NCBI GenBank assembly: GCA_016930535.1
Contig: JAFGGN010000062.1
Location: 207 to 64,206 of the forward strand
Reading direction: 5' to 3'
Origin: a bacterium
GTDB taxonomy: Bacteria > Zhuqueibacterota > QNDG01 > JAFGCO01
Length of the DNA: 64,000 nt
Within the stretch, counting starts at the first letter, position 1, and every line of letters starts with the position of its first letter. Made by a program: the position numbers and the translations under genes. The notes under the pieces are model-generated. The model saw only the letters and a program-made list of their open reading frames with translations. It made no database searches and had not been told where the DNA came from. Of the stretch, positions 50,531 to 63,477 are shown one piece after another.

Positions 50531-50723
50531 GCATCCGTTCCGGAAGTCCGGACCTGGTGTGAAGACATGGGGACTCAATCTGGGAATATATGAAATTGAT
50601 GTTTCCCCCTATGTTTCCCCGTAACCAGGTTCATAAATAATTGATAATAAAAATGATAAGATTATGAAAATATGCATACTACGTAGTATGCACCGGTGTA
50701 TCGTCCATGAACAGGAGGCAACT

Positions 50724-52757
50724 GTGAAAAAACGTCTGATGATCACTGTACTGATGACCCTGCTGGTCGCGATGTCCGCATTTGTCCGGGCGGCCCAGAG
50801 CGAAACCCCGGATCAGAAGGATGCCCGAATGCAGTGGTGGCGGGAAGCGCGTTTCGGCATGTTCATTCACTGGGGCATTTACTCGGTTCCGGCAGGCATT
50901 TACCACGGCGAGAAGATTGTCGGCATAGGCGAGTGGATCATGAACAATGCCAGGATCCCGGTGGAGGAATATGCAGGGTATGCAAAGCAGTTCAATCCTG
51001 TCAAATTCGATGCGGATGCATGGGTGCAGCTTGCCGGGCGTGCGGGCATGAAGTACATCGTGATCACGTCCAAGCATCACGACGGATTCGCCATGTTCGG
51101 TACCAAGGCCAGTCCCTACAATATCATGGATGCCACACCGTTCAGGCGGGATCCGCTGAAAGAGCTGGCGGCTGCGTGTAAAAAACACGGCATCAGGCTG
51201 GGATTCTACTATTCCCAGGCCCAGGACTGGCATCATCCGGGCGGATCCGCCATGGGCGGCCACTGGGATCCGGCCCAGGACGGCAGCATGGATGCATATA
51301 TCGAAAAAGTCGCCATACCGCAGGTGAAGGAAATACTGAGCAATTACGGAAAAATTTCCGTGCTGTGGTGGGACACGCCGTTCGGCATGACGCATGAACA
51401 AACCGCCCGGTTCGTACCGCTGCTCGATCTGCAGCCGGGCATTATCACGAACAACCGGCTCGGCAGCGGATTCGAGGGAGACACGGAGACGCCGGAGCAG
51501 TTCATTCCGGCCACGGGCTACGGGGACCGCGACTGGGAAACCTGCATGACCATGAACGACACCTGGGGATACAAGTCCACGGACCATAACTGGAAAAGCA
51601 TCCGCACTCTGATCTTCAATCTGTGTGATATCGCCTCCAAGGGCGGAAATTATCTGCTCAATGTCGGTCCCACGGCCGAGGGCCTGATTCCGGAGGCTTC
51701 GGTCGAACGGCTGGAAGCCATCGGCCGGTGGATGGCCGTGAATGGAGAGGCGGTTTACGGCACACAGGCAGGACCTTTTAACGTGTCGCCGTGGGGCAAA
51801 TGCACACAGCAGCCCGCTGGCGAATCCGAAAACGGCATCACCCGGCTCTATCTGCATGTGTTCAACTGGCCGGAAGACGGTCCGCTGACCATCTCCGGTC
51901 TGAGCAACCGTCCGGCCGGAGCGTTTCTCCTGTCGGATCCTGAACGGTCCGCGCTTTCGATTGCACGGAACGGGGATGCCGTCGAAATCGGCGTGCCGGC
52001 CCAGGCCCCGGATTCGATCTGCAGCGTGGTGGTGCTGGATATCGAGGGTATGGCCCGGGTAACCGATCCGCCGGTTTTCTCCAATACGGTCACTATATTT
52101 ACGGATTCGATCGATGTGCTGGCCAAAAGTGATTATCCGGAACTGGAACTGAGGATGTCCACGGACGGCCGCGTTCCGGATGCGGATGCTCCGCCCGTAC
52201 AGGGGCCCGTTACCGTCAGGGAGACGTCCACGGTCATGGCCAGGCTGTTCAAGGACGGCCGGCCGGTCAGCGGAACCGCCCGTATCCAGTTCACGCGGGT
52301 CACGCCGGCTCCGGGCGTGAGTCCGGCCGATCCGGTCCAGGGTATACGGTGCCGGTACTACGAGGGCGACTGGGACGTCATACCGGATTTTACGGCCATG
52401 CAGGCATCGAAGGACGGCATCTCGGCCAATTTCGGATTGTCCGCACGCGAAAAAGACGACAGTTACGGATTTCATTATCAGGGATTCATACAAATTCCGG
52501 AGGACGGCATCTACACCTTCTTCACGGAATCCGACGACGGCAGCCGTCTCTGGATCGGGGATAAACCCGTTGTGGACAATGACGGACTGCATGCCATGGT
52601 GGAAAAGTCTGGCTCAGTCGCCCTGGCTGCCGGGTATCATGCCATTGCCGTCTCCTTCTTCGAAAAGGGCGGAGACGACGATCTGAAGGTTTCCTGGCAG
52701 GGGCCGGGTATTGAAAAGGGGCCGGTGCCGGATTCGGTGCTTTTTACTGAAAAATGA
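50724..52757 (+). CDS. GH29 alpha-L-fucosidase with C-terminal FN3/chitobiase-like and PA14 domains
   Basis: WWREARFGMFIHWG, SKHHDGF, LWWD nucleophile, WETCMT, YLLNVGP; PA14 (SDDGSRLWI..VVDNDGLH); GTG start after AGGAGG. Confidence 0.9.
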   Translation: MKKRLMITVLMTLLVAMSAFVRAAQSETPDQKDARMQWWREARFGMFIHWGIYSVPAGIYHGEKIVGIGEWIMNNARIPVEEYAGYAKQFNPVKFDADAWVQLAGRAGMKYIVITSKHHDGFAMFGTKASPYNIMDATPFRRDPLKELAAACKKHGIRLGFYYSQAQDWHHPGGSAMGGHWDPAQDGSMDAYIEKVAIPQVKEILSNYGKISVLWWDTPFGMTHEQTARFVPLLDLQPGIITNNRLGSGFEGDTETPEQFIPATGYGDRDWETCMTMNDTWGYKSTDHNWKSIRTLIFNLCDIASKGGNYLLNVGPTAEGLIPEASVERLEAIGRWMAVNGEAVYGTQAGPFNVSPWGKCTQQPAGESENGITRLYLHVFNWPEDGPLTISGLSNRPAGAFLLSDPERSALSIARNGDAVEIGVPAQAPDSICSVVVLDIEGMARVTDPPVFSNTVTIFTDSIDVLAKSDYPELELRMSTDGRVPDADAPPVQGPVTVRETSTVMARLFKDGRPVSGTARIQFTRVTPAPGVSPADPVQGIRCRYYEGDWDVIPDFTAMQASKDGISANFGLSAREKDDSYGFHYQGFIQIPEDGIYTFFTESDDGSRLWIGDKPVVDNDGLHAMVEKSGSVALAAGYHAIAVSFFEKGGDDDLKVSWQGPGIEKGPVPDSVLFTEK

Positions 52758-52844
52758 ACGGGGTGAAATATCCATCGTATTTCTCTCCAAAAGGGGTTCC
52801 TGATTTTTTGTGTTGGTTTTCATCCGTTAAGGAAGGTTTTCCGG

Positions 52845-55358
52845 TTGACCATGGCTGCGGCATGTATCCTGCAGGCCGCAGCCGTGCCTTCCGCAATCCA
52901 ATACATCCATCCGCTGCCCGGCAGCCGGCTGCACACGCCTGAAACCACCGTGATCCTGAGGCTGAGGCCGGATCTGCAGGACGGGGTGACGGATCCGGCG
53001 GGTCTGATCCGTGCAAAGGGGAAAAACCGCGATAGTCCGGGGACCGTGACCCGGGCGTCTGACGGAAGTACCCTTATTTTTAAACCCGCACAGCCTTTCG
53101 ATTATAATGATGAAGTGGAGGTGACGATACGGACCGGATGGCCGGATGTGGATTTTCATTATACCTTTTATACGGTTCCCGCACAGAAGACGCTTGCAAA
53201 AACGGGTATGGCCTCCAAGATTTCCGGTCCGGATCCCCGGCCAAAAGCAGTACTGACCCGTGATGTGCACACCATCAACGGTGTGCCCGTTCCGGCCGAT
53301 TTTCCCGGCATAACCACGATTCAGATGGGTGACACGGCGCCGGGCCTGATTTTTTTCACCACCAATTTCCCCGTAAACTGCGGCAATTACATGATCGTCT
53401 GCGACAACGGCGGCACGCCTGTTTTTTACCGGAAGATAACCGAAGCGGCGCGAAGCACGAATTTTCTGCTGCATGCCGGCGGTTTGCTGTCCGTGCATCT
53501 GTGCGACCCGCTGGACACGGGTCAGTGGCGGCATCTGATTTTCGACAACACCTTCACACCCGTGGATGAGATCCGGGCCGGACACGGCTATATCACGGAC
53601 AATCATGAACTGCAGCTGCTGCCGGACGGCCACGCACTCGTCATCGCGGATCAGACAGTCGAGCTCGATCTGAGCCGGACCGTGCCTGAAGGCAATACCC
53701 GTGCACTGGTGCAGGGCTTCCATTTTCAGGAACTGGACCGCAACAAAGACGTGATTTTTGAATGGCGGAGCTGGGATCATTACCGGGTCACGGATGCCGT
53801 ATGGGAGGATCTTTCCGAAGGCAGCGTCGACTACGTGCATATGAATTCCGTGGACATCGATTTCGACGGCCATTATATCGTTTCGAGCCGGAACCTCAGC
53901 GAAGTCACGAAAATCGACCGGAACACCGGTGTCATAATCTGGCGGTTCGGCGGTGTGAACAATCAGTTCGATTTCAGGGATGATGACGGTCCGTTTTCGT
54001 ACCAGCATGATGTCCGGCCCGTTTCCGGAAAGCCCAATCACTACCTGATGTTCGACAACGGCGTTCATCACGAAGCGCATTATTCCAGGGCAGTGGAATA
54101 CAGACTGGATATGGTGGCCAAAACCGCCGGAATAGCGTGGCAGTTCCGGTATACGCCGGACCGTGCCGTGACGGGCATGGGAAGCTGTCAGCGGCTGCCG
54201 CAGGGAAACACCCTGATCGACTGGCCGCAGGATGAAACCCGGATCTGTGAAGTCACGCCGGAGGGTAAAATTGTCTTCGAGCTTTTCAGCCCGGGTCACA
54301 CCAATTACCGCTGCCGGCGTTACGACTGGCACGGCCGCATGAAAACACCCTGCCTGCAGATCGAGAATCATGGCGATTTTGTCCGTCTCTTTTTCAGCCA
54401 GTCCGGGGATCCGAATGTCCGTTACTACAATATCTATTCGGGAGTCTCGGACCCGCCGGAAACACGGATCGCTTCGACTTCACAGCGTTATTTCGATGTG
54501 AACGACCCTGTCAACGGCGCCGTGAATTATTATCGTGTGACATCCGTGGACAAGGACGACCGTGAAAGCGGATTTTCGATCACGGAAAAAACAACGGTCA
54601 ATACACTCGGACCGGGTGAAAATGCGGTGCGGAACGGCAGCTTCGATTCATTCTCTTACTGGATATTGAAGGTAACCAAACCGGCTTCTGCAGAAAGCGG
54701 CATTACCGGGCGCGGTGAATGCCGCATTCACAGCGACAGGGATGGCATGGAAGCTGAGAATATTCAGCTCTGTCAGGAGAACGTGCCGATTATCGAAGGC
54801 AGGACATACCGTTTCGAATTCGACGCCTGGGCGAGCGATCCATGTTTCATCGGTGCACGGGTCGGGGAAAATGCGTATCCCTATGCGGATTACGGCAGCA
54901 TGGGGGAATTTTATATCACACGGAAGAAAAAGCGGTATCAGGACGCCTTTGTCATGGGAGCGCGCAGTGATCCGGACGCCCGGGTCAGTTTCAAATGCGG
55001 TCTGGTCACCGGGGATCTGTACATAGACAACGTGTCCCTGTTCTATCTGGAAACCGTATCGGCTGCTCCGCATGATTCGCCGGCTGATGTTCCGGAAAAC
55101 CTGGTGCTGTATCCGAATGTGCCGAATCCGTTCAATCCTGTCACATCCATTTCCTACCGTATTCTGAAGAGGAATCCTGTTCATCTCAGCGTGACCAATA
55201 TCGCCGGCCAGACCGTGGCGGTGCTTGTAAATACGATTCAGGCGCCTGGAGTTTATTCGGTCAAATTTACAGGCGGCCGTCTGCCGGCCGGTGTATATGT
55301 ATGCAGGCTGAAATCCGGGGAGGCATCCCTGACCCGCCGTATGGTGCTTATCAAGTAG
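52845..55358 (+). CDS. Arylsulfotransferase (ASST)-family protein with CBM4/9-like module and T9SS-type CTD
   Basis: DNHELQ, YVHMNSVD, SYQHDVR, FDNG, SCQRLPQGNTLI; VRNGSF..YRFEFDA; LYPNVPNPFNP.T.I CTD. Confidence 0.8.
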   Translation: MTMAAACILQAAAVPSAIQYIHPLPGSRLHTPETTVILRLRPDLQDGVTDPAGLIRAKGKNRDSPGTVTRASDGSTLIFKPAQPFDYNDEVEVTIRTGWPDVDFHYTFYTVPAQKTLAKTGMASKISGPDPRPKAVLTRDVHTINGVPVPADFPGITTIQMGDTAPGLIFFTTNFPVNCGNYMIVCDNGGTPVFYRKITEAARSTNFLLHAGGLLSVHLCDPLDTGQWRHLIFDNTFTPVDEIRAGHGYITDNHELQLLPDGHALVIADQTVELDLSRTVPEGNTRALVQGFHFQELDRNKDVIFEWRSWDHYRVTDAVWEDLSEGSVDYVHMNSVDIDFDGHYIVSSRNLSEVTKIDRNTGVIIWRFGGVNNQFDFRDDDGPFSYQHDVRPVSGKPNHYLMFDNGVHHEAHYSRAVEYRLDMVAKTAGIAWQFRYTPDRAVTGMGSCQRLPQGNTLIDWPQDETRICEVTPEGKIVFELFSPGHTNYRCRRYDWHGRMKTPCLQIENHGDFVRLFFSQSGDPNVRYYNIYSGVSDPPETRIASTSQRYFDVNDPVNGAVNYYRVTSVDKDDRESGFSITEKTTVNTLGPGENAVRNGSFDSFSYWILKVTKPASAESGITGRGECRIHSDRDGMEAENIQLCQENVPIIEGRTYRFEFDAWASDPCFIGARVGENAYPYADYGSMGEFYITRKKKRYQDAFVMGARSDPDARVSFKCGLVTGDLYIDNVSLFYLETVSAAPHDSPADVPENLVLYPNVPNPFNPVTSISYRILKRNPVHLSVTNIAGQTVAVLVNTIQAPGVYSVKFTGGRLPAGVYVCRLKSGEASLTRRMVLIK

Positions 55359-55565
55359 CCGTGATAGCGCCATCCGCAGAATTCCCGTTGATTTTACAGC
55401 CTGATTTGGTTATACTGATTTTCAGAACGATTCGCCTGCCTTTGCGTTTTACATCAGGGACCAACCATGCCCCGCTGTCGGGATAGGGTTCGGTTCCGAT
55501 AACGGGAAAGGCGACAGAACATGTGTCAGGCGGTGTTTTAAATCGGCGGGCGAATCCGCTTCGTT

Positions 55566-56834
55566 ATGAGATCAGGCGTTATCATCAAACAGTCGGGGCC
55601 GGTCATGATCCATATCACAAAGAAAGTATCCGCACTCATCGCCGTCTGTCTGGCCGTCTCCTCCGTCCTCTGCCAGACGCCTGAAACCATAAGGCCGGGC
55701 TGTCCGGAATGCCGTTTGCTCAGGCTCGATTATGAAAATTCCGGCGGGGAAAACGGACTGACGACATTCGATTACAACGGGGATGGCCTGCTGGAAAAGG
55801 CCGTGTGGGAGCTGGACGACGGCAGCCGGATCTCCCTGAATTCATACACACACGATAAAGACGGCAGGCTCATCCGGAAGTACCGTGAGTATTCCGACAG
55901 TCTGATATCGGATCAGGCATTCGAGTATAATAACCGGGGACAATTGATCACGGAGCGTTTCGAGAGGTCCGACAGTGTTTCGGGATTGACAACGTACGAG
56001 TATGACGATCAGGGAAGACTGGCCGGGATGCGGTGCAGGGGATTCAATGGGTGGTTTTACGGGGATATCGCCTTTACGTACGATGAGGCGGGTAGCAAAA
56101 TAAAGGGAGATATCCGGCATGAGGGTGAACACGCGGGCGTTATTTTATATTCGTATGACGAATGCGGCAACCTGATCAGGGAGCACTGGGATTTTTCGGG
56201 CCGGTGGAGCCAGACATTCATTTATGAATACGAAGCCTGTCCGGCAGCTCCGCCTGCGGTTTATGCATCTTCGAACGTGTTTATTTCCGGCAATCCGCAA
56301 TACCGTCTCATCGGAGAACATTATGATTATTCAGGCAAAACGGGCGGTCCGTCGTTTTATTTTTACGGCAAGGGCGGCAAGCTCCTGTCGAAGCGTTTCG
56401 AACGGTCGGACGGTTTTTCGACCGAAACGGATTATTTGTACGATTGTAAGGGGAAGCTGACCCGGTCCTGCAGACACTATTCGAACGGACTCTTCGCGGT
56501 CTTTTCCTATGAATCCGGTCCGTCCGGCAAACTTGCGACACGGTCATTCAGGCGTACGGACGGTGTCTCCGGAAGCGAATCCTATGCATACGATTCCAGG
56601 TCGAACCTGGTATCCGCACAGTGGATCAATGTCGACTCATGGCTCACCGGAGCGCTGACATTCACTTCCGCTGAAGACGGAACACTTACCGGCGGGCATT
56701 ATCAGGGAGCGGACGGTTCCGGCGCTGAGATCCGGTTCGAATATGACGCTCACGGGAATTTACTGAAAATTCACTGGGATTTTGCATCCGGTGCAACTCA
56801 GACATATGTGTTTGAGTATGAATATGCCAAATGA
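55566..56834 (+). CDS. Secreted YD/RHS-like repeat protein of two tandem homologous halves (start may be 55605)
   Basis: Repeated YxYDxxGxL beta-hairpins; both halves end YDxxGNL.+.HWDF....QT...EYE. Confidence 0.7.
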   Translation: MRSGVIIKQSGPVMIHITKKVSALIAVCLAVSSVLCQTPETIRPGCPECRLLRLDYENSGGENGLTTFDYNGDGLLEKAVWELDDGSRISLNSYTHDKDGRLIRKYREYSDSLISDQAFEYNNRGQLITERFERSDSVSGLTTYEYDDQGRLAGMRCRGFNGWFYGDIAFTYDEAGSKIKGDIRHEGEHAGVILYSYDECGNLIREHWDFSGRWSQTFIYEYEACPAAPPAVYASSNVFISGNPQYRLIGEHYDYSGKTGGPSFYFYGKGGKLLSKRFERSDGFSTETDYLYDCKGKLTRSCRHYSNGLFAVFSYESGPSGKLATRSFRRTDGVSGSESYAYDSRSNLVSAQWINVDSWLTGALTFTSAEDGTLTGGHYQGADGSGAEIRFEYDAHGNLLKIHWDFASGATQTYVFEYEYAK

Positions 56835-56847
56835 ATCCGTTTCCCGC

Positions 56848-57615
56848 CTAAAGCCATGACAGCGTGACTTCTCCGGGTTCGGGATTGACCAGCTGATGGA
56901 ACAATTCCGTCAGGCCGGCCAGACAGCCGGGGAGGTTGTCATTGGACATGGTCTGAACGGCATCCTGATAAATCAGCTGGCCTTCCTTCAATATGCCGAC
57001 TTCCATGCACACTTTTTCGATCAGGCTCAGATTGTGCGAGGTCATAAAAACCGTGGTACCTTTTGCAGCCATTCGCATGATGATGTCCTGAATCATTCCG
57101 GATGAAACCGGATCCAGGCCATCGAACAATTCGTCGATAAAGAGAATTCGGGGATCGTGAATGATGGCGCACATGAAGGCCAGTTTTTTCTTCATGCCCT
57201 TCGAATACTCATGGATCCACATCTGCCTCTGACCGTAAAGATCGAATGCGATAAAAAGTTCATGCAGCCGTTCCAAGGCTGTTCGTCTGTCCAATCCGTA
57301 TATCCGTGCCGAGAAATACAACTGTTCATCCGCATGCAGATGATCGAAGAGGGCCAGATCTTCCGTGACCACGCCGATTTCCGATTTAATTGCACAGCTG
57401 TTTTTGGACGTGAATTCCCGTCCCAGAAGATAAATCCGGCCATGACTGGCCCTGAGAAGCCCGGTCAGCAGATTCATGCTGGTGGTTTTGCCGGAACCAT
57501 TGGGACCGACAAGTCCGTATATGACGGATTCGCGAACACTGAAATTGATATTGGTTAAGGCTTGCCGCATGCCGTAATTCTTGCACAGATCGGCGGTTCG
57601 AATCGCAAAGTCCAT
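56848..57615 (-). CDS. ABC-2 type transporter ATP-binding subunit
   Basis: GPNGSGKTT, YSKGMKKK, FIDELFDGLD, TSHNL. Confidence 0.9.
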   Translation of the reverse strand: MDFAIRTADLCKNYGMRQALTNINFSVRESVIYGLVGPNGSGKTTSMNLLTGLLRASHGRIYLLGREFTSKNSCAIKSEIGVVTEDLALFDHLHADEQLYFSARIYGLDRRTALERLHELFIAFDLYGQRQMWIHEYSKGMKKKLAFMCAIIHDPRILFIDELFDGLDPVSSGMIQDIIMRMAAKGTTVFMTSHNLSLIEKVCMEVGILKEGQLIYQDAVQTMSNDNLPGCLAGLTELFHQLVNPEPGEVTLSWL

Positions 57616-59259
57616 TCAACCTCCTCTGATTGTCATGACAAACGTTTCTTTTTCCTTTTCCAGAAGATGTGCCACCGGCCTGAGACTGACTGCATATATG
57701 TCCACGGCCAGGATGGCCATGATCAACATGACCGGGATGCTTCCTGCCGGCGATTGAATCAGGCTCAGAACGAGGGCCACAGGCAGCGAGAAGCCGACGA
57801 AGGCGATGATGAGCAGAATGTTGTTTTGAACCGATGTCGATTTACCGAATATGGAACAGAAATCGGTTCGTGACGGATTTTTAGTCAGAAGACTGTTGAT
57901 ACACAGACTGATGATTGCGTAGAAATAGATCAGAATCAGTTCGCAGAGCAGGATCATTCCCGCGCCGGCATGCTGATGAAAAAGAAGAATGCTGAGGGCT
58001 ATGCTCTGTATCAGACTGATCTGAACCACACAAAAATAAGCCAGATTCTTTATGAGAAGATAATGCCTGATCCGGACCGGAACGATAAAAACCTGCTGTA
58101 TGCCTTTTCCGTCGAACGTGTGCATATAGAATCCCTCCTTCGACAGGACAACGGGTGCGATACACACGGCCACGGCCATCTTCATGACGGTCGGACCATC
58201 CCGCAGCAGCCAGCTGCAGTAGATGACGGTGACGAGCATGCACAGCAGAAGATACATCCAGGTCCGACCGCTCCTGATCAGGTATAATATCTCTTTCTTC
58301 AGCAGGATGTTTATTCCGGTGTTCTGCGGGACGATGAAATCATGGAGCCAGTTTTTCAAAAGAGGGCTGGACGAGCGGCTGACAGGATTCCCGCCTGCCC
58401 GATAACGATCCGAATCGATCAATCCGGAGAAAAACAGAAAGCAAAGCGTCATCAGGATGATGTCGGTCAGAGTGAGCCACAGTACACTTCGGATGAAGCC
58501 GGCGGATAATCCTGAGGCGAACAGGCTCCCGGTTGCACTGGCTGCAGATGTCCACGGCGTCAGCCCGATGAGCAGGCGGCCGGAACGCAACACCTGCAGG
58601 GGCAGCGGACTGCCGAACGAGAAATAAAAGCCCGTCAGTGCAAGGACCGCGGCGGCAAGGATCCATTTGAACAGTCTGCCCAGTCGCCCCATTCCCGGAT
58701 GCCTTCCCAACAGGGACTCGTACAACAAATAGAAAAGAAAACGGAGTGAGAGAATGCTGGTCATGTACAGAAAACATATCAGGATCAGCCCGGGCCACCG
58801 CATCAGATTCAGGAACCCGGGAACAGCAGTCACGATGATGATAATTAAGCCGAAGAAAACGAGACTCGGAATGTCCAGGGCCGTTATAATAAATTCATAC
58901 AGAAACAGCCGGAATCTGGAAACGGGCAGAAAACCACGGGAACGCAACCGGGACGGTGAAGTATGGTGAACGCCCAGATAAAAACCTGCGGCGATCATGC
59001 CGTATCCACCCCAGAAAAAAAGCGCCTGAAACACATGAGGGTTCGTCACGATCTGCCGCTCGAAGATGCGGAACATATCCCGGATGAAGCCGGCCCCGAA
59101 ATACACAACAATGCCCAGAAGTGCGAACAGTACGGCTGCCGGATTTTTAAAGGGTCCTCTCCTGTAAAAAAAACGGTTGAAACGCTGTCTCAGCATCAGT
59201 CGGAATATCATGTTTTGCTCCAGATGGATTTCTATAAAATAAAAATGTTTTCGTTCCAT
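57616..59259 (-). CDS. ABC transporter permease (about 12 TM, two halves); start may be 59211
   Basis: Many hydrophobic segments, internal LLKKEILYLIRS motif, abuts the ATPase gene. Confidence 0.75.
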   Translation of the reverse strand: MERKHFYFIEIHLEQNMIFRLMLRQRFNRFFYRRGPFKNPAAVLFALLGIVVYFGAGFIRDMFRIFERQIVTNPHVFQALFFWGGYGMIAAGFYLGVHHTSPSRLRSRGFLPVSRFRLFLYEFIITALDIPSLVFFGLIIIIVTAVPGFLNLMRWPGLILICFLYMTSILSLRFLFYLLYESLLGRHPGMGRLGRLFKWILAAAVLALTGFYFSFGSPLPLQVLRSGRLLIGLTPWTSAASATGSLFASGLSAGFIRSVLWLTLTDIILMTLCFLFFSGLIDSDRYRAGGNPVSRSSSPLLKNWLHDFIVPQNTGINILLKKEILYLIRSGRTWMYLLLCMLVTVIYCSWLLRDGPTVMKMAVAVCIAPVVLSKEGFYMHTFDGKGIQQVFIVPVRIRHYLLIKNLAYFCVVQISLIQSIALSILLFHQHAGAGMILLCELILIYFYAIISLCINSLLTKNPSRTDFCSIFGKSTSVQNNILLIIAFVGFSLPVALVLSLIQSPAGSIPVMLIMAILAVDIYAVSLRPVAHLLEKEKETFVMTIRGG

Positions 59260-59300
59260 CCCTGAAAAAGCGAATGAAACGAAAACATATCAGGCCGGAA

Positions 59301-59471
59301 TCAGCATGGCGCTTTGGCCATCATGAAACCGAACGCCACCGCACCAACCACCGGTCCCAACGCCGCCGCACCGATGCCGGCCACCGCCAGTGACTGAAAA
59401 ATATAGACAGCACAGGCGAGTTTTTTGCCTCCTTCGAGCTCCAGCAGTTCTGATTCTGTCAGTAATGTCAT
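59301..59471 (-). CDS. Double-glycine-leader peptide precursor 2 (56 aa), not in the ORF track
   Basis: Manual translation MTLLTESELLELEGG|KKLACAVYIFQSLAVAGIGAAALGPVVGAVAFGFMMAKAPC*; GGGAGGAG RBS upstream. Confidence 0.88.
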   Translation of the reverse strand: MTLLTESELLELEGGKKLACAVYIFQSLAVAGIGAAALGPVVGAVAFGFMMAKAPC

Positions 59472-59492
59472 GTTCTCCTCCCTGAATGTGAA

Positions 59493-59654
59493 TTACATCA
59501 GTCTGCCGATGGCCCACCCGACACAGGCGGCACCGGCGATGAGCAGGGGTGCGAAGAACAGGGCGCCGACGCCGACTGCCGCGCAACCGTAATCCACGGC
59601 CCTTTTCCACCCTCCTTCGAGCTGCTCCATCTGCTGAATGGTGAGTTCGTGCAT
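59493..59654 (-). CDS. Double-glycine-leader peptide precursor 1 (53 aa; start reassigned from 59774)
   Basis: MHELTIQQMEQLEGG|WKRAVDYGCAAVGVGALFFAPLLIAGAACVGWAIGRLM*; AAAGGAGG RBS. Confidence 0.9.
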   Translation of the reverse strand: MHELTIQQMEQLEGGWKRAVDYGCAAVGVGALFFAPLLIAGAACVGWAIGRLM

Positions 59655-59724
59655 GGATCCTCCTTTCTTTGGTTTGGAATGAATCGTTATCCTGCACAAA
59701 CGGGCATTTGATGCAGGATCGCGT

Positions 59725-60273
59725 TTAATTTGCAGAATATGCCTGATCGGCCTGTTCCGGTTCGGCGGAATCATGACCTCCGATCAGACCGGCGAGCGAC
59801 CGGATATTGAACTCGCCAGTTGATTTGTAAATCAGCCTCCCGTCCGGGGCGAACACATAAATCGATGGTACGCTCCGTGTGCCGAAAACCATTCTCAGTG
59901 TATCCGGATCCACCAGCCCCCAGAATATCCGGCCGGTTCCGTTCAGATCCGGGTACTTCTGAATGTAGTAACCGGGGGGAGGCAGATCGCTGTCCGTCCA
60001 GATAAACAACCTGGCCGATGAAAACGACTGGACGTGGTTCTCCAATTCTTTCAAAAAATAATGGCAATAGGGACAGTCCGGTCGGTGAATGATGATGCAT
60101 GTGTGAATCGAAGGGTCCGGGCCAAGTTCCGCGATGCCGGATCCGGACCTGTACCACATACGGGGCAGGCTTGCCCCAAGCGGCAGTACATCGGGCCTGA
60201 ACACTTCACGGATCAGGAGCGTCAGACAGATCAGCATCATTGAAACCATCACGCAATAGAACAATCTTTTCAT
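59725..60273 (-). CDS. Membrane-anchored thioredoxin-fold (TlpA/redoxin-like) protein
   Basis: N-terminal TM MKRLFYCVMVSMMLICL; HRPDCPYC motif; FGTRSVPSIYVF cis-Pro region. Confidence 0.8.
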   Translation of the reverse strand: MKRLFYCVMVSMMLICLTLLIREVFRPDVLPLGASLPRMWYRSGSGIAELGPDPSIHTCIIIHRPDCPYCHYFLKELENHVQSFSSARLFIWTDSDLPPPGYYIQKYPDLNGTGRIFWGLVDPDTLRMVFGTRSVPSIYVFAPDGRLIYKSTGEFNIRSLAGLIGGHDSAEPEQADQAYSAN

Positions 60274-60281
60274 TCCGGCTC

Positions 60282-60938
60282 CTACGCCATGAGCCGCATC
60301 AGATATGCGACAACGGCCCATTGGAAAATGAACATGAAAAACCAGATGCCCAGTATCAGGATCAGGGCATTGGTTAAGGACATGGAACGGATGCGGAGCA
60401 GTCCGTAAACCATCAGACCGATCCAGAGGCCCTGGAAAATATTCAGATGATTCATCAGGAAGACGGTCGATGCCGGGTAAGAGGACATATCGAAAAATCC
60501 GGACAGGGAAAGCGGAACATGGGACAGGGCGGCATAATCCAGTGAACCGGATGGAACGTGCATGCGCAGCAGGGTTCCGGATAATTTACCGGAGAGCAGC
60601 GGAATTTCCGCCAGGCATACGGTTACAAACAGGCGCCCGAACGGCATGTCCTTCAGCTTAAGTACGAAAGGAAACTGAACCAGCAGTGTTTTAAAAACGA
60701 TTTTCAGCATCAGGACAACAGGGACCAGCACATAGACGATTCCGGAAAACCGGTGTATCTGATCCGCATACCGGTCGATGAGTGCGGCATCCATCCGGTC
60801 TGACAGGATCGAATGATAGGCCTCCCGTGTCATGATGACCTCTTGTGTCAGAAACAGGTCCAGCGCAAGGCCGGCCGTGAGCATACAAAACAGAAGCCAT
60901 CCGTCATTGTCCGGTTTCCCATGGGATTGATTATCCAT
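60282..60938 (-). CDS. Multi-pass membrane accessory protein of the peptide cluster
   Basis: About 5 hydrophobic segments; ATG overlaps the exporter stop (translational coupling). Confidence 0.75.
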   Translation of the reverse strand: MDNQSHGKPDNDGWLLFCMLTAGLALDLFLTQEVIMTREAYHSILSDRMDAALIDRYADQIHRFSGIVYVLVPVVLMLKIVFKTLLVQFPFVLKLKDMPFGRLFVTVCLAEIPLLSGKLSGTLLRMHVPSGSLDYAALSHVPLSLSGFFDMSSYPASTVFLMNHLNIFQGLWIGLMVYGLLRIRSMSLTNALILILGIWFFMFIFQWAVVAYLMRLMA

Positions 60939-63147
60939 GATCCGCCTTTCCTGCCGGGTCCTGTTTTTTATGAATCCCGTGCGAAAAATGAGGACCGGGT
61001 GAAAAAAGCAGATCCGGAGGCACGGTACGGACGATTTTTCCGCGGTCCAGCACATGCACCTGGTCCGTGTAAAACAGGGACTGCATGTCGTGCGTGATCA
61101 GGAGCACGGCGTGATCCGCTGCATAGTCCCTCAGTCCTTTCAGAATACGCAGCCTGATTTCCATATCGGTCATGAGAATGCCTTCGTCCACGATCAGCAC
61201 ATCCGGACAGGACAGAAGCGCCCGTACCAGGCCGACGACCTGCCGTTCACCTCCGGACAGTTTCCTTCCGTCTTCTCCGAGAATCGCCGTCATTCCGGAA
61301 TCGAAACGGTCGAAAACGGGACCCGCGCCGAATGCATGAATTCTGGCACGTATATCCGGGAGGCCGTATTCCATCCGGCCCATGCGGATGTTTTCAAAAA
61401 GGGATCCGTTGAAAATATGCACCTCCTGATGAATTGCGGCTACGCGCTGCCGGTAATCCGTCAGATTCAGGCGGCCGGCCGGAAGACCGTTGACGGACAG
61501 GATGCCGGCCGACAGGGCATATTTTCTCTGGAGCAGGCTGGCGATCGTACTTTTACCCGTCCCGCTTTTTCCCCACAGCGCGGAAATGGTGCCGCACCGG
61601 ATATGCAGATTCAGGCCGTCCAGCAGGCGTGAGCAGCGTGGGTAGGCAAACCGGCCGTTCTCGATGATGAGTTCGCGGATTTTCCCCGGTTTTTCGGAGG
61701 CCTGGTGGTTTTCCCGTTCATAATCCAGAATGTCCCGCTGTCTTCTGATGGCCACGCGGGTCTGTTTCAGGGCAATGACGGTGTCCCCGAACTGATGCAC
61801 GGCAGGGACAATGGTCATCATCAGCGCCCAGGCGGCCATCATTTCTCCGATTCGCAGAGATCCGTGCAGCACCTGCGCGGCACCCGAAGCAAGGAAAATG
61901 ACCAGGAACAGGCCATGAAGATGCCCGGAGCAGAGCGAGATATGGTTCCTGGTGAAGCCGAGTTTTTCAAGATGTTTCTGAAACAGTGTAAATAAACGGC
62001 TGTTGATCATGATAAACGGTTCATGCGCATGAAATCCAATGATATCGTCGATGCCCTTCAGGCTGTTGAAGGCCGAGGATTCCACATCCGCAAAAGATTT
62101 CAGTGTCCATGTCTGTTCATCTTCGATATGCCGGGTCCTGGCCAGCAGTAAAACGGCGTACAGGATCAGGAACAAAATGAGGATGCCTGCAAGCGTTTTT
62201 GAGAACAGGATGAGCAGAACAAACGATGCGGCACACATGATACCGTCCACTACGGTCTGGTTCAGGAGCAGCATCAGTCCCTGCTGGATCTTCAGACTGT
62301 CATTCAGGCGTGCAATAATATCTCCGATTTTCCGGGAGTCGAAAAACATTCTGGGCAGCCTGAAAAGATGTTCCAGAAAATCCCGGTTGATATCCATGCT
62401 CATGGTTTTGTTCAGGGAGATAAAAAACCGCTGCCGGAAATAGGCAGCCCATGTCCGGCAGAGAATAAAACAGGCAAGCAGGATACAGGTCCAGACAATG
62501 TCGGACAGATCGCCCCGGGGAATCAGCACGTCGATCAGCTGATGGATGTAAAAGACCGGCAGCAATCCCAGAAGGCTTGCAAGCAGACCCAGAAATACGG
62601 ACTGGTAAAACAGGGGAAGAATGCGTCTGATGTAATGCATGAGCCATTCTGTCCAGGGCGGTTCTGTACGGCTGGTCAATGGCCTTTCCGGCTCGAGCAG
62701 GATGACGGCTCCGGATTGCCATATATCGAGAAAACGGGATTTGCTTATTTTCCTGAGGCCTTCGGCCGGATCTCCGGCAAGTACGTTTTTGTGCGTGACC
62801 CTGAAGAGCACCATGAAATGCTGAAGACCGGCTTCCGATACGACATGGGCGATACAGGGCATCCGCTCACGGCTCAGGTCCGAATAGGAACCGGCTGCGC
62901 CTCTGGCCCGGAATCCAAGAGATTGGGCGGCCCTGACCAGTTCCAGCATGCTTGTACCGATCCGGTCCGCATGGCACAGCTGCCGGACATGGGCCATTGG
63001 GGCATCTCCCCCGTAGAATCTCAGAACGCTCAGCAATGCGGCCGGTCCGCAATCACTGCTGTCCATCTGGCGGACGATTCCGGGTCTGTGTCTGAATCGC
63101 AACCTGAGGTATCTGTACAGCGCAGAAAAACCATATATCCGCATCAT
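60931..63147 (-). CDS. Peptidase C39-containing ABC transporter (PCAT)
   Basis: RQMDSSDCGPAAL (catalytic Cys), QHFMVL (His), GDPA; TM domain; GKSGTGKST, LSGGERQ, IVDEG, ITHD. Confidence 0.93.
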   Translation of the reverse strand: MMRIYGFSALYRYLRLRFRHRPGIVRQMDSSDCGPAALLSVLRFYGGDAPMAHVRQLCHADRIGTSMLELVRAAQSLGFRARGAAGSYSDLSRERMPCIAHVVSEAGLQHFMVLFRVTHKNVLAGDPAEGLRKISKSRFLDIWQSGAVILLEPERPLTSRTEPPWTEWLMHYIRRILPLFYQSVFLGLLASLLGLLPVFYIHQLIDVLIPRGDLSDIVWTCILLACFILCRTWAAYFRQRFFISLNKTMSMDINRDFLEHLFRLPRMFFDSRKIGDIIARLNDSLKIQQGLMLLLNQTVVDGIMCAASFVLLILFSKTLAGILILFLILYAVLLLARTRHIEDEQTWTLKSFADVESSAFNSLKGIDDIIGFHAHEPFIMINSRLFTLFQKHLEKLGFTRNHISLCSGHLHGLFLVIFLASGAAQVLHGSLRIGEMMAAWALMMTIVPAVHQFGDTVIALKQTRVAIRRQRDILDYERENHQASEKPGKIRELIIENGRFAYPRCSRLLDGLNLHIRCGTISALWGKSGTGKSTIASLLQRKYALSAGILSVNGLPAGRLNLTDYRQRVAAIHQEVHIFNGSLFENIRMGRMEYGLPDIRARIHAFGAGPVFDRFDSGMTAILGEDGRKLSGGERQVVGLVRALLSCPDVLIVDEGILMTDMEIRLRILKGLRDYAADHAVLLITHDMQSLFYTDQVHVLDRGKIVRTVPPDLLFSPGPHFSHGIHKKQDPAGKADHG

Positions 63148-63161
63148 TAGCAAGACCAATT

Positions 63162-63197
63162 AGTTAAAATTGACGAAAAACAGTTAAAATTAACGAA
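63162..63197. promoter_or_regulatory. Tandem 16-bp direct repeat upstream of the PCAT gene
   Basis: AGTTAAAATTGACGAA (63162) and AGTTAAAATTAACGAA (63182), 15/16 identical, 20-bp period. Confidence 0.55.
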
Positions 63198-63477
63198 CAG
63201 AATCAGTATAAAAAATAAAATCACATTTGTCAAGCAAAAAATGCAATAAATACGTAATTAAGCAAAATTACTCTTATAATGGAAGAAAATTCAGGTAATG
63301 ATGCACAATCGCGTGAAATTTTACGATTCATATTGAAAATATGGCATTTATTACCGTTTTTCTCCGTGAATCGCCGATCGGTTCCGCATATGCCGCCGGT
63401 TCGGTCCCGCATGTTTTCCATTGATTTTATAATTTGATATGCGTATACTCGTTTATCGATGATTCCCGGCTGATTTG

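Follow-up and report, generated by a model that had tools for sequence, protein, structure and literature searches.

Seven closely packed open reading frames (ORFs), all on the minus strand and in one direction, occupy positions 56848-63147 of the window, by which we mean the whole 64,000-nucleotide stretch of DNA that was analysed. In order of transcription they encode a peptidase-containing ABC exporter (PCAT), a membrane protein of approximately five helices (TM5), a thioredoxin-fold protein, two double-glycine (GG) precursor peptides (pre1 and pre2), a permease and an ATPase. The features, with the basis for each, are as follows:

63205..63233, minus strand: sigma-70-like promoter, TTGACA-17 nt-TATACT, ahead of the exporter gene (consensus match)
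63162..63197, minus strand: two 16-nt direct repeats, TTCGTCAATTTTAACT and TTCGTTAATTTTAACT (repeat search)
60931..63147, minus strand: PCAT exporter, 738 aa (Pfam, NCBIfam, PCAT1 alignment)
60282..60938, minus strand: TM5, ~5-helix membrane protein, 218 aa (family alignment, AlphaFold2 model)
59725..60273, minus strand: membrane-anchored thioredoxin-fold thiol oxidoreductase (CPYC), 182 aa from MKRLF (Thioredoxin_2, family alignment)
59689..59719, minus strand: stable hairpin with an 8-bp outer stem and an inner stem, no U-tract (folding)
59493..59654, minus strand: pre1, 53 aa, a 15-aa GG leader and a 38-aa core (ORF, RBS, core analysis)
59301..59471, minus strand: pre2, 56 aa, a 15-aa GG leader and a 41-aa core (ORF, RBS, core analysis)
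59233..59288, minus strand: terminator-like hairpin (~19 bp), then UUUUUAUUUUAU (folding versus shuffles)
57616..59259, minus strand: polytopic permease, 547 aa, ~12 hydrophobic segments (ORF, hydrophobicity)
56848..57615, minus strand: ABC ATPase of the DrrA/ABC-2 type, 255 aa (Pfam, NCBIfam, locus homology)

Several of the gene junctions are coupled: the start of TM5 overlaps the exporter stop by 8 nt, the thioredoxin gene, with a GGAG RBS, begins 8 nt past the TM5 stop, and the ATPase start codon abuts the permease stop (0-nt gap). No RiPP-modifying enzyme domain was found by Pfam/NCBIfam search in any of the seven products, and, judged from its sequence, the operon is a complete locus for the production and export of GG peptides, of class-II type and free of modifying enzymes. 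Relatives from the same taxonomic order carry the name candidate division KSB1, which is Candidatus Zhuqueibacterota in current NCBI naming and belongs to the FCB group. The GC content of the region gives no sign of recent transfer, an Rfam search of it found no RNA family, and neither island borders nor an empty site were found in relatives, where orthologues of the neighbouring RHS-repeat gene are 60% identical and synteny is lost.

The exporter has the C39 peptidase, six-TM and nucleotide-binding domains of a PCAT (Pfam: Peptidase_C39, 3e-28; ABC_membrane, 1e-24; ABC_tran, 9e-20), and its top NCBIfam matches are bacteriocin cleavage/export transporters, under the equivalog cut-offs. The best solved relative is PCAT1 of Clostridium thermocellum (4RY2; E 9e-88, full length), followed by ComA of Streptococcus (E 1e-64). 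Gln27, Cys33, His110 and Asp126 align with the oxyanion Gln and the Cys/His/Asp triad of PCAT1, and Walker A (GKSGTGKST), signature (LSGGERQ) and Walker B (VLIVDE) motifs can be picked out by eye in the translation. The likeness to PCAT1 and ComA thus takes in full-length homology, the triad and the nucleotide-binding motifs; unlike the operon, however, their systems have neither a TM5 nor a thioredoxin partner. The C39 domain is present in a single copy in the genome. An alternative TTG start for the exporter lies at 63159. Class II microcin systems of Proteobacteria pair a PCAT with a cluster-encoded CvaA-type membrane-fusion protein (MFP) and TolC, whereas Pfam and NCBIfam detect no HlyD/MFP domain in the seven operon products, and the cluster, which has no MFP or TolC gene, offers no evident route through the outer membrane.

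The promoter upstream of the exporter matches 11 of 12 positions of the sigma-70 consensus, which may not be that of KSB1, and is the best in the 7-kb region. Between its -10 hexamer and the exporter start codon lie the two direct repeats, 94% identical and 20 nt apart from start to start; the tandem is essentially unique in the genome, and would be an operator-like site.

TM5 matches nothing in Pfam or NCBIfam. Its AlphaFold2 model is all-helical, with approximately five transmembrane helices (pLDDT 86), and a Foldseek search of the PDB with this model gave no fold match (best E 3.4). Homologues fall into 1118 representative clusters at E<=1e-3 and sit in identically arranged Bacteroidota loci (Pontibacter, Algoriphagus, Flavobacterium, Melioribacteraceae); TM5 is strongly matched in 23 of the 167 KSB1 species genomes, and 28 of the 401 sampled Bacteroidota also have a match. 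A tblastn search against plasmids found no match, and a homologue search from Bacteroidota-type TM5 queries, which was swamped, gave no named Bacteroides match. A locus search with a reduced TM5 alignment returned KSB1 contigs only, a limit set by the use of a single peptide pattern. TM5 is the conserved partner of the exporter. Two other identities were rejected: a DsbB/VKOR-like re-oxidase, as no Cys is conserved in the family alignment, and a relative of the ABC permease (hhalign probability below 1%). A weak profile match does connect TM5 to a Yip1-like protein of the same genome (hhalign probability 41%, E 2.8e-4), and two TM5 homologues bear the Yip1 name in UniRef; the Pfam Yip1 model (PF04893) matches two other genes of the genome and does not match TM5 at E<=10. 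The Yip1-family protein YknW, an accessory membrane protein of the Bacillus YknWXYZ system for SDP-toxin efflux (PMC4887032), provides a precedent for a small polytopic protein that aids an ABC peptide transporter, which is the role we infer for TM5; unlike YknW, TM5 is tied to Yip1 weakly and fails the Pfam model.

The thioredoxin-fold protein is matched by Thioredoxin_2 with E 6.5e-5, below the cut-off, and the CxxC motif (here CPYC), the cis-Pro and the N-terminal anchor are invariant across 15 homologues. By the positive-inside rule, it would face the periplasm. In several sister loci the thioredoxin-fold gene is adjoined by a MauE-family 4-TM gene, reminiscent of the MauE/MauD-type disulfide-forming pairs; MauE is missing from the operon in the window, and the one homologue in the genome is on another contig. 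That the oxidoreductase has no cis-encoded re-oxidising partner counts against the explanation favoured below.

Pre1 (leader MHELTIQQMEQLEGG, core WKRAVDYGCAAVGVGALFFAPLLIAGAACVGWAIGRLM; RBS AAGGAGG) and pre2 (leader MTLLTESELLELEGG, core KKLACAVYIFQSLAVAGIGAAALGPVVGAVAFGFMMAKAPC; RBS GGGAGGAG) are encoded 21 nt apart, each behind its own strong RBS. Both leaders are 15 aa long and end in LEGG, their ends being nearly alike (13 identical nt), and that of pre1 presents hydrophobic residues at -12, -7 and -4 ahead of the GG. Core 1 (38 aa; net charge +2; GRAVY 1.22) contains Cys9, Cys29 and Pro21, and core 2 (41 aa; net charge +3; GRAVY 1.36) contains Cys5, a C-terminal Cys41 and Pro25; GWAIG and GPVVG motifs are present in the cores. 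The calculated core masses are 3895.7 and 4013.9 Da, or about 3894 and 4012 Da once oxidised. Across the wider peptide family, cores typically have a Cys close to either terminus, and 14 of 34 peptides also have a mid-core Pro. A low-confidence AlphaFold2 model of the pre2 peptide (pLDDT 60) has a helix, a break at LGP and a second helix, and the two peptides, predicted to be secreted, are probably each stapled by a disulfide. When all 4.99 Mb of the genome were scanned for an ATG, an RBS, a double-glycine leader and a hydrophobic core, just pre1, pre2 and an unrelated 74-aa hydrophobic ORF on contig C109 were retrieved; the features of the pair are, therefore, more than chance.

A preliminary description of this DNA, made without database searches, had reported an uncultured FCB-type lineage, seven co-directional genes with no RiPP-modifying enzyme, a C39 domain with intact catalytic Cys/His, a ~5-TM protein, a CPYC thioredoxin-fold protein, strong RBSs, 15-aa LEGG leaders and cationic, hydrophobic, GxxxG-bearing cores of 38 and 41 aa; the results above bear out each of these observations. 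It had not recognised the cores, and indeed no characterised peptide was matched by Pfam, NCBIfam or a word search. There are no significant core homologues: the word search with pre2 among 5.8 billion proteins found itself alone, and HMMs of the most similar-looking cores fail to retrieve pre1 or pre2.

Two hairpins flank the precursor genes. The first, which separates the thioredoxin stop from the pre1 RBS, lies in a region with a dG of -29 kcal/mol (z -2.25); a role in mRNA processing or stability would be speculative. The second, directly past pre2, is terminator-like (dG -26 kcal/mol; z -3.56) and none of 200 shuffles folds as well; it was missed by a simple scan. Because this hairpin covers the annotated start of the permease, translation probably begins instead at the ATG at 59211, which lies behind a GGAG and would give a product of 531 aa.

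The permease has no match in Pfam and no family was detected for it, and its similarity to the ~520-545-aa permeases in the same position of Bacteroidota loci is a weak colinear match (hhalign E 3.3e-4; probability 38%; 414 columns). The ATPase is matched by ABC_tran (3e-26). A family of lantibiotic-protection ATPases, TIGR03740, comes second among its NCBIfam matches (E 5e-47, under the cut-off), and the protein shows 35-39% identity (E 1e-48 to 1e-60) with the ATPases encoded after the large permeases of Bacteroidota loci L070, L072 and L073. The two proteins probably constitute an immunity/efflux ABC transporter of which the permease is the membrane part; LanFEG-type lantibiotic immunity transporters are a precedent for an ABC-2-type pump that guards a producer against the membrane-active peptide it makes.

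The exporter-TM5-thioredoxin cassette, with adjacent peptides that have 15-aa leaders and two or four Cys, was found in 13 retrieved KSB1 loci and at least 10 Bacteroidota loci. L070 and L073 keep the order seen in the window (exporter, TM5, in places MauE, thioredoxin, one or more peptides, ~520-545-aa permease, ATPase) and L072 has the same genes rearranged, these three being the Bacteroidota loci in which the large permease and ATPase were found with the trio. By sequence-based count, the family extends to ~14% of KSB1 species and ~7% of the sampled Bacteroidota species, and the arrangement is not unique to the lineage.

The closest described counterparts are the loci for the bacteroidetocins (Bd-A, Bd-B, Bd-C and Bd-D), for which class IIf has been proposed (PMC6671954; Matano et al. 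2021, PMC8546649). As described by Coyne et al. (2019), a bacteroidetocin locus encodes a GG peptide, whose leader is 15 aa long, together with an ABC transporter that has a double-glycine peptidase, a thiol oxidoreductase and a protein of five TM regions; the five-TM protein, oxidoreductase and peptide are each required for toxin activity, the four genes suffice in Escherichia coli, and the five-TM protein of Bacteroides is not an immunity protein (PMC6671954). The leader is cut at the GG and the mature peptides are disulfide-bonded (PMC6671954). The resemblance, which the preliminary description had already pointed out, is genuine: the four-gene core of the operon matches the published description (PMC6671954). 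Of the class IIf features, the operon has the GG leader (15 aa here, 15-16 aa in the class), two or more Cys per mature peptide, and the adjacent C39 ABC transporter and thiol oxidoreductase. A ~5-TM protein likewise adjoins, homologous to TM5 of the identically arranged Bacteroidota loci and compared with Bd-A/B by description. The likeness rests on that description, and TM5, the thioredoxin-fold protein and the exporter have clear homologues in the identically arranged Bacteroidota loci; TM5 and the thioredoxin-fold protein may also be related to the Bd-A/B proteins. The host is from KSB1/Zhuqueibacterota, whereas class IIf peptides are made by, and act on, Bacteroidetes. Both kinds of locus are also without an MFP/TolC gene or RiPP enzyme, and their hosts without general DsbB/VKOR machinery; the absence of DsbB and VKOR from the present genome echoes the case made for a dedicated oxidoreductase in Bd loci (PMC6671954). 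There are, however, clear differences. The Bd-A/B peptides have four Cys, only 12-13 of their 42 residues are hydrophobic, and their producers, being without immunity, kill themselves (PMC6671954), whereas the operon encodes a pair of two-Cys peptides, of far greater hydrophobicity (GRAVY 1.2-1.4) and without detectable sequence relatives, together with a likely immunity permease and ATPase. BamA is the target of the Bd peptides (PMC6671954, PMC8546649); neither target nor activity can be transferred to the present cores, given that these have no significant homologue and are not retrieved by HMMs.

The operon is, then, a bacteroidetocin-like variant rather than a new system, and we consider it likely that it is of bacteroidetocin type (class IIf-like) in function, making, exporting and probably resisting its peptides. 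The sigma-70-like promoter ahead of the exporter gene would initiate transcription, and most transcripts would stop at the hairpin and U-tract that follow pre2, some reading on into the ABC-2-type genes. The exporter, through its C39 domain, would bind the precursors by their 15-aa amphipathic leaders; the precursors would be cut after Gly15 by Cys33/His110/Asp126 and the cores pumped across the inner membrane, with TM5, whose counterpart in Bacteroides is the five-TM protein, as an accessory membrane subunit in the export step. The outward-facing CPYC protein would then oxidise the two Cys of each core (C9-C29 and C5-C41 for cores 1 and 2, respectively), and the disulfide would staple each as a helix-turn-helix hairpin about the central Pro. 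The permease and ATPase would confer immunity by expelling the highly hydrophobic peptides from the producer membrane, and the released peptides would most likely be membrane-active antibacterial toxins against related bacteria, acting alone or together. Besides the missing re-oxidising partner, the orphan cores, the contrasts with Bd-A/B, the lack of an evident way through the outer membrane, the weak permease homology and the low confidence of the peptide model all tell against this reading.

Whether the two peptides are obligate partners is a separate matter. In a class IIb-like bacteriocin, the cores would be inactive alone and form a 1:1 GxxxG-mediated helix-helix complex with shared immunity, possibly as an inter-chain disulfide heterodimer; the closely spaced genes with their own RBSs and nearly identical leader ends, the cationic, hydrophobic cores rich in small-xxx-small motifs and the single ABC module serving both peptides all agree with this. 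The operon indeed shares with class IIb systems (lactococcin G, plantaricin EF/JK; lactobin A/cerein 7B, TIGR03949) two adjacent GG precursors, a C39 ABC exporter and cationic, hydrophobic, Gly/Ala-rich cores with GxxxG-type motifs. Moreover, peptides often come in neighbouring pairs in the closest clade of Bacteroidota (L070, L071, L072 and L073), L071 and L073 sharing a tandem pair ('xxxAC...SPC' and 'D.GCA...C.GY..ARLFG') with motifs loosely like those of pre2 and pre1, respectively. We nonetheless rejected a conserved pair, since the likeness is of motifs only and not significant (shuffle z about 3-4) and core-only HMMs miss pre1 and pre2 among the 93,284 ORFs of the genome. GxxxG and small-xxx-small motifs occur throughout the family and are equally common in single-peptide loci, the other KSB1 loci in which peptides were found have one full-length GG peptide each, and the class IIb/IIc models stay below cut-off on the precursors (Bacteriocin_IIc, E 8e-4 with pre2; PF10439, 19.8 against 27.1 bits; TIGR03949, 12.5-12.7 against 21.5 bits). 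Typical class IIb operons also carry a small dedicated immunity gene, of which the present operon has none, the immunity candidate here being an ABC transporter and not a small membrane protein; furthermore, the Cys pairs beside a dedicated oxidoreductase and the presence of TM5 are unlike class IIb, whose hosts are Gram-positive, whereas the present host is presumably diderm, as a member of the FCB group. An obligate two-peptide bacteriocin is possible but rather unlikely, and of the original interpretation the class-II-type export locus and the bacteroidetocin likeness are retained, whereas the class IIb label is not.

Less probable still is that the peptides are not antibiotics but stapled hairpins for the membrane or surface of the producer (for example, as envelope or vesicle parts), positioned there by the ABC-2 transporter. 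As modelled, they do resemble membrane-resident helical hairpins, the family is widespread, its genomes mostly having one copy, and the producer is without an evident outer-membrane export route. Against this, the family occurs patchily, as an accessory trait, and has decaying copies, those of G096 and G097 containing in-frame stops; the cores diverge fast beside conserved machinery, as we would expect of weapon/immunity loci; the only characterised loci of the four-gene layout, moreover, make secreted antibacterial toxins (PMC6671954, PMC8546649).

The two cores, at 38-41 aa and with GRAVY above 1.2, match transmembrane helices in hydrophobicity. Pheromones such as ComC, exported by ComA, likewise use GG leaders and PCAT exporters, but a quorum-sensing or competence-type role is very unlikely here: ComA ranks second among the solved relatives of the exporter and the tandem repeat at the promoter is operator-like, yet there is no histidine kinase or response regulator in the operon or in 6 kb of contig past the window, known GG pheromones, unlike these cores, are soluble, and a dedicated efflux-type ABC transporter better suits self-protection.

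On the bacteroidetocin-type reading, the export trio would extend beyond the Bacteroidetes to an uncultured sister phylum, for which we found no paper, in the literature searched, tying KSB1/Zhuqueibacterota to double-glycine or bacteriocin-type peptides. One machinery would serve both hydrophilic and extremely hydrophobic disulfide-stapled cargo, and the pump would be a candidate for immunity in a family whose characterised members have none. It is possible, if somewhat doubtful, that the loci represent a distinct bacteriocin subclass of the FCB superphylum (Zhuqueibacterota, Ignavibacteria-like lineages and Bacteroidota), in which highly hydrophobic helical hairpins with a single end-to-end disulfide, exported by a PCAT with a Yip1-like accessory protein and countered by a cognate ~12-TM ABC pump, would act on the membrane and not BamA, the pair in the window being the first KSB1 antimicrobial and perhaps a true two-peptide system. 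The operon yields two orphan peptides of 38 and 41 aa that are synthesisable. TM5, with more than 1000 sequence clusters and a confident predicted fold that has no structural match, presents a tractable question, which bears on how diderm bacteria without an MFP/TolC system export GG peptides.

On the best-supported reading, the minus-strand operon is likely to be a bacteroidetocin-type unit for production, export and immunity, devoted to two hydrophobic, disulfide-stapled and probably antibacterial peptides. The cluster that had been proposed in the preliminary description is borne out when the ORFs are listed and the DNA is read directly; its seven genes, all on the minus strand, occupy 56848-63147:

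60931-63147 (-), exporter, 738 aa, the first gene, with Pfam Peptidase_C39, ABC_membrane and ABC_tran domains
60282-60938 (-), TM5, a helical membrane protein of 218 aa with about five helices
59725-60273 (-), thioredoxin-fold protein, 182 aa, anchored in the membrane at its N-terminus and carrying a CPYC motif
59493-59654 (-), pre1 (precursor 1), strong RBS, MHELTIQQMEQLEGG leader followed by a 38-aa core
59301-59471 (-), pre2 (precursor 2), strong RBS, MTLLTESELLELEGG leader followed by a 41-aa core
57616-59259 (-), permease, polytopic with about 12 helices, near the operon end
56848-57615 (-), ATPase of the ABC-2/DrrA type, the last operon gene, its start abutting the permease stop

The GWAIG, GPVVG and LEGG motifs had been read correctly in that description, as had the absence of a RiPP-modifying enzyme. 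Scanned in full for the GG-peptide pattern, the 4.99-Mb assembly yielded only pre1, pre2 and, on a different contig, an unrelated hydrophobic ORF, and the genome encodes a single C39 domain; the arrangement is therefore not due to chance. Among solved structures, the exporter is closest to PCAT1, a peptidase-containing ABC transporter (E 9e-88, end-to-end alignment): Gln27 aligns with the oxyanion Gln of PCAT1, and Cys33, His110 and Asp126 with its Cys/His/Asp triad. The exporter and TM5 genes overlap by 8 nt, and the thioredoxin-fold gene begins 8 nt after TM5, behind GGAG.

Each core contains exactly two Cys residues (9/29 in core 1 and 5/41 in core 2) and a central Pro; core 1 has a net charge of +2 and a GRAVY of 1.22, core 2 a net charge of +3 and a GRAVY of 1.36. 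In a comparison set of 34 peptides from related loci, nearly all have a 15-aa leader, and the cores are 36-60 aa long, Gly/Ala-rich and of GRAVY 0.6-1.65. Two or four Cys residues are present in 33 of them and three in the other, the first lying 2-16 residues from the cleavage site and the last 0-13 from the C-terminus; Pro occurs near the middle of the core in 14. Within this set, pre2 resembles a subset with Cys at core position 4-5 and an [S/A]-P-C end (peptide alignment A5), and pre1, loosely, peptides with a C-x-G-[WY]-x-x-x-R-L-[FM] ending. Both likenesses are weak (shuffle z-scores 3-6); core-only HMMs built from the look-alike peptides did not retrieve pre1 or pre2 among the 93,284 ORFs of their own genome, and a word search with pre2 matched only itself. 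On these comparisons, the cores are therefore orphans within a loosely defined peptide family. The low-confidence AlphaFold2 model of pre2 (pLDDT 60), in which a leader helix is followed by two core helices with a break at Leu-Gly-Pro, is compatible with a hairpin. An identical 13-nt stretch, AGCTCGAAGGAGG, at window 59428-59440 and 59611-59623 encodes the LEGG end of both leaders, while the cores differ, as would be expected either if the leaders are conserved or if gene conversion followed a duplication. At a locus of Algoriphagus taiwanensis (L093:9675-10563), the exporter-thioredoxin-TM5 trio stands beside two GG peptides that are hydrophilic and acidic and have two Cys each (GRAVY -0.1 and -0.3); the machinery is thus not tied to greasy cargo.

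The fold predicted for TM5 is confident (pLDDT 86), and the model matched no solved structure; nor did the protein match any Pfam or NCBIfam family. A role as a DsbB/VKOR-type re-oxidase was rejected because TM5 has no conserved Cys, and the protein is unrelated to the permease. Two Bacteroidota homologues are named 'Yip1 domain-containing' by UniRef; the Pfam Yip1 model does not match TM5, although it matches two other genes of the same genome, with one of which the TM5 profile aligns colinearly but weakly (prob 41%, E 2.8e-4). In Bacillus, the YknXYZ ABC pump, which acts against the SDP peptide toxin, is helped by YknW, a protein of the Yip1 family (PMC4887032); by analogy, an accessory-subunit role for TM5 is plausible. 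At five loci, some from KSB1 and some from Bacteroidota, a four-TM gene of the MauE family (PF07291) lies between TM5 and the thioredoxin gene (L018:6435-6839, L022:8249-8704, L023:8591-9052, L070:8007-8423 and L073:8015-8425), which suggests that MauE and the thioredoxin may be a disulfide-forming pair there. The window operon has no MauE gene; the one homologue in the genome is at contig C30:192-668.

The trio recurs well beyond this genome. Among 167 species genomes sampled from the host phylum, 25 encode a homologue of the thioredoxin-fold protein and 23 a strong TM5 match (E<=1e-29), the latter one per genome and spread across many families. Thirteen KSB1 loci that were retrieved show the exporter-TM5-thioredoxin order, in whole or, where contigs are short, in part, with a 15-aa-leader GG peptide gene nearby in 11 and, in one further locus (L025), a GG peptide with a longer leader of 27 aa. 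The thioredoxin-fold genes of two KSB1 genomes contain in-frame stop codons (G097:C124:8699-9193 and G096:C381:1087-1602), so the cassette seems to be degenerating in some genomes. Run against 1.84 billion representative proteins, a TM5 profile gave 1118 clusters at E<=1e-3, and the profile matches 28 of 401 evenly sampled Bacteroidota genomes; Algoriphagus taiwanensis, Flavobacterium piscis and a Melioribacteraceae genome are among those with matches. A Pontibacter locus combines TM5 with three GG peptides, an ABC ATPase, a 442-aa permease that has no Pfam match, a thioredoxin-family protein and a C39 ABC exporter.

Two further loci, L070 and L073 (Bacteroidota/Ignavibacteria-like), show the full gene order of the window operon, including a 519-544-aa permease (approximately 12-14 helices) followed by the ATPase; L072 has the same genes in another order, with a permease of 533 aa. 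Their ATPases are 35-39% identical to that of the window, and the window permease is colinear with the Bacteroidota-locus permeases over 414 columns, albeit weakly (hhalign E 3.3e-4, prob 38%). Phylogenetically, the KSB1 exporters cluster as a single group (support 94/96) that nests with the L070-L073 clade, separately from a further clade of Bacteroidota; the branch of the window exporter is long. Downstream of a single exporter trio, L070 and L073 carry successive modules of GG peptide(s), membrane protein(s) and ABC ATPase, as if each toxin brought its own ABC immunity module.

[quoted passage not shown] The extended bacteroidetocin (class IIf) family has been accepted on the leader, at least two Cys residues and the ancillary genes (Coyne et al., PMC6671954). 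Every such architectural feature is present at the window locus, its likeness to the bacteroidetocin A and B loci being one of description; orthology to the proteins of those loci we infer from the matching descriptions and the Bacteroidota homologues. In the bacteroidetocin loci, deletion of the peptide, TM or oxidoreductase gene attenuates toxin activity, and four genes are enough for the toxin in E. coli; neither accessory protein confers immunity, and producers kill themselves (Coyne et al., PMC6671954). The target of the toxins is BamA (PMC8546649). Their oxidoreductase has been explained by Bacteroides having no general disulfide machinery (Coyne et al., PMC6671954); likewise, DsbB and VKOR are absent from the genome of the window. 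The differences are that the host phylum is another, that there are two peptides, each with two Cys rather than four, that the cores are orphan and far more hydrophobic (bacteroidetocins A and B have 12-13 hydrophobic residues of 42), and that a permease-ATPase pair is attached. Greasy peptides and extra transporters do occur in our own Bacteroidota loci. In relation to published work, the locus would be a variant of the bacteroidetocin-type system and not a new kind of system.

The two cores may act only as an obligate pair, though this is less likely than not: adjacent peptide pairs occur frequently in the nearest clade, but a single full-length peptide was seen at each of the other peptide-bearing KSB1 loci, and the GxxxG motifs are uninformative. 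A non-antibiotic role in the envelope is unlikely beside the bacteroidetocin-type reading, and a signalling function for the peptides more improbable still; no kinase or regulator was seen near the operon, including 6 kb of contig beyond the window.

A putative sigma-70-type promoter of near-consensus sequence (TTGACA-17-TATACT) lies at 63233-63205. Between its -10 hexamer and the exporter start are two 16-nt direct repeats, 20 nt apart (63162-63197), a tandem essentially unique in the genome that by its appearance looks like a putative operator. One hairpin is predicted after the thioredoxin stop, ahead of pre1 (z -2.25); directly after pre2, a 19-bp terminator-like hairpin with a U-tract (59233-59288, z -3.56) covers the annotated permease start at 59259, which suggests attenuated read-through and that the true permease start may be the ATG at 59211, behind GGAG. 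An Rfam search of the region gave no match.

The GC content of the locus is similar to that of the rest of the window, and the source assembly is 92% complete in 141 contigs. Assignment to an uncultured FCB-type lineage, as first proposed, agrees with the title 'candidate division KSB1 bacterium' borne by contigs of same-order and same-phylum relatives, a name now placed at NCBI under Candidatus Zhuqueibacterota in the FCB group (PMC11683472). In a neighbouring gene, a C-terminal sorting domain for type IX secretion scores weakly, short of the Pfam cut-off. The flanks (window 50664-56834) encode an RHS-repeat protein, whose gene has 60%-identical orthologues within the host's order but in a neighbourhood that is not kept, an alpha-L-fucosidase with a PA14 domain, and an arylsulfotransferase-like protein that carries a CBM and ends in a weak type IX secretion tail.
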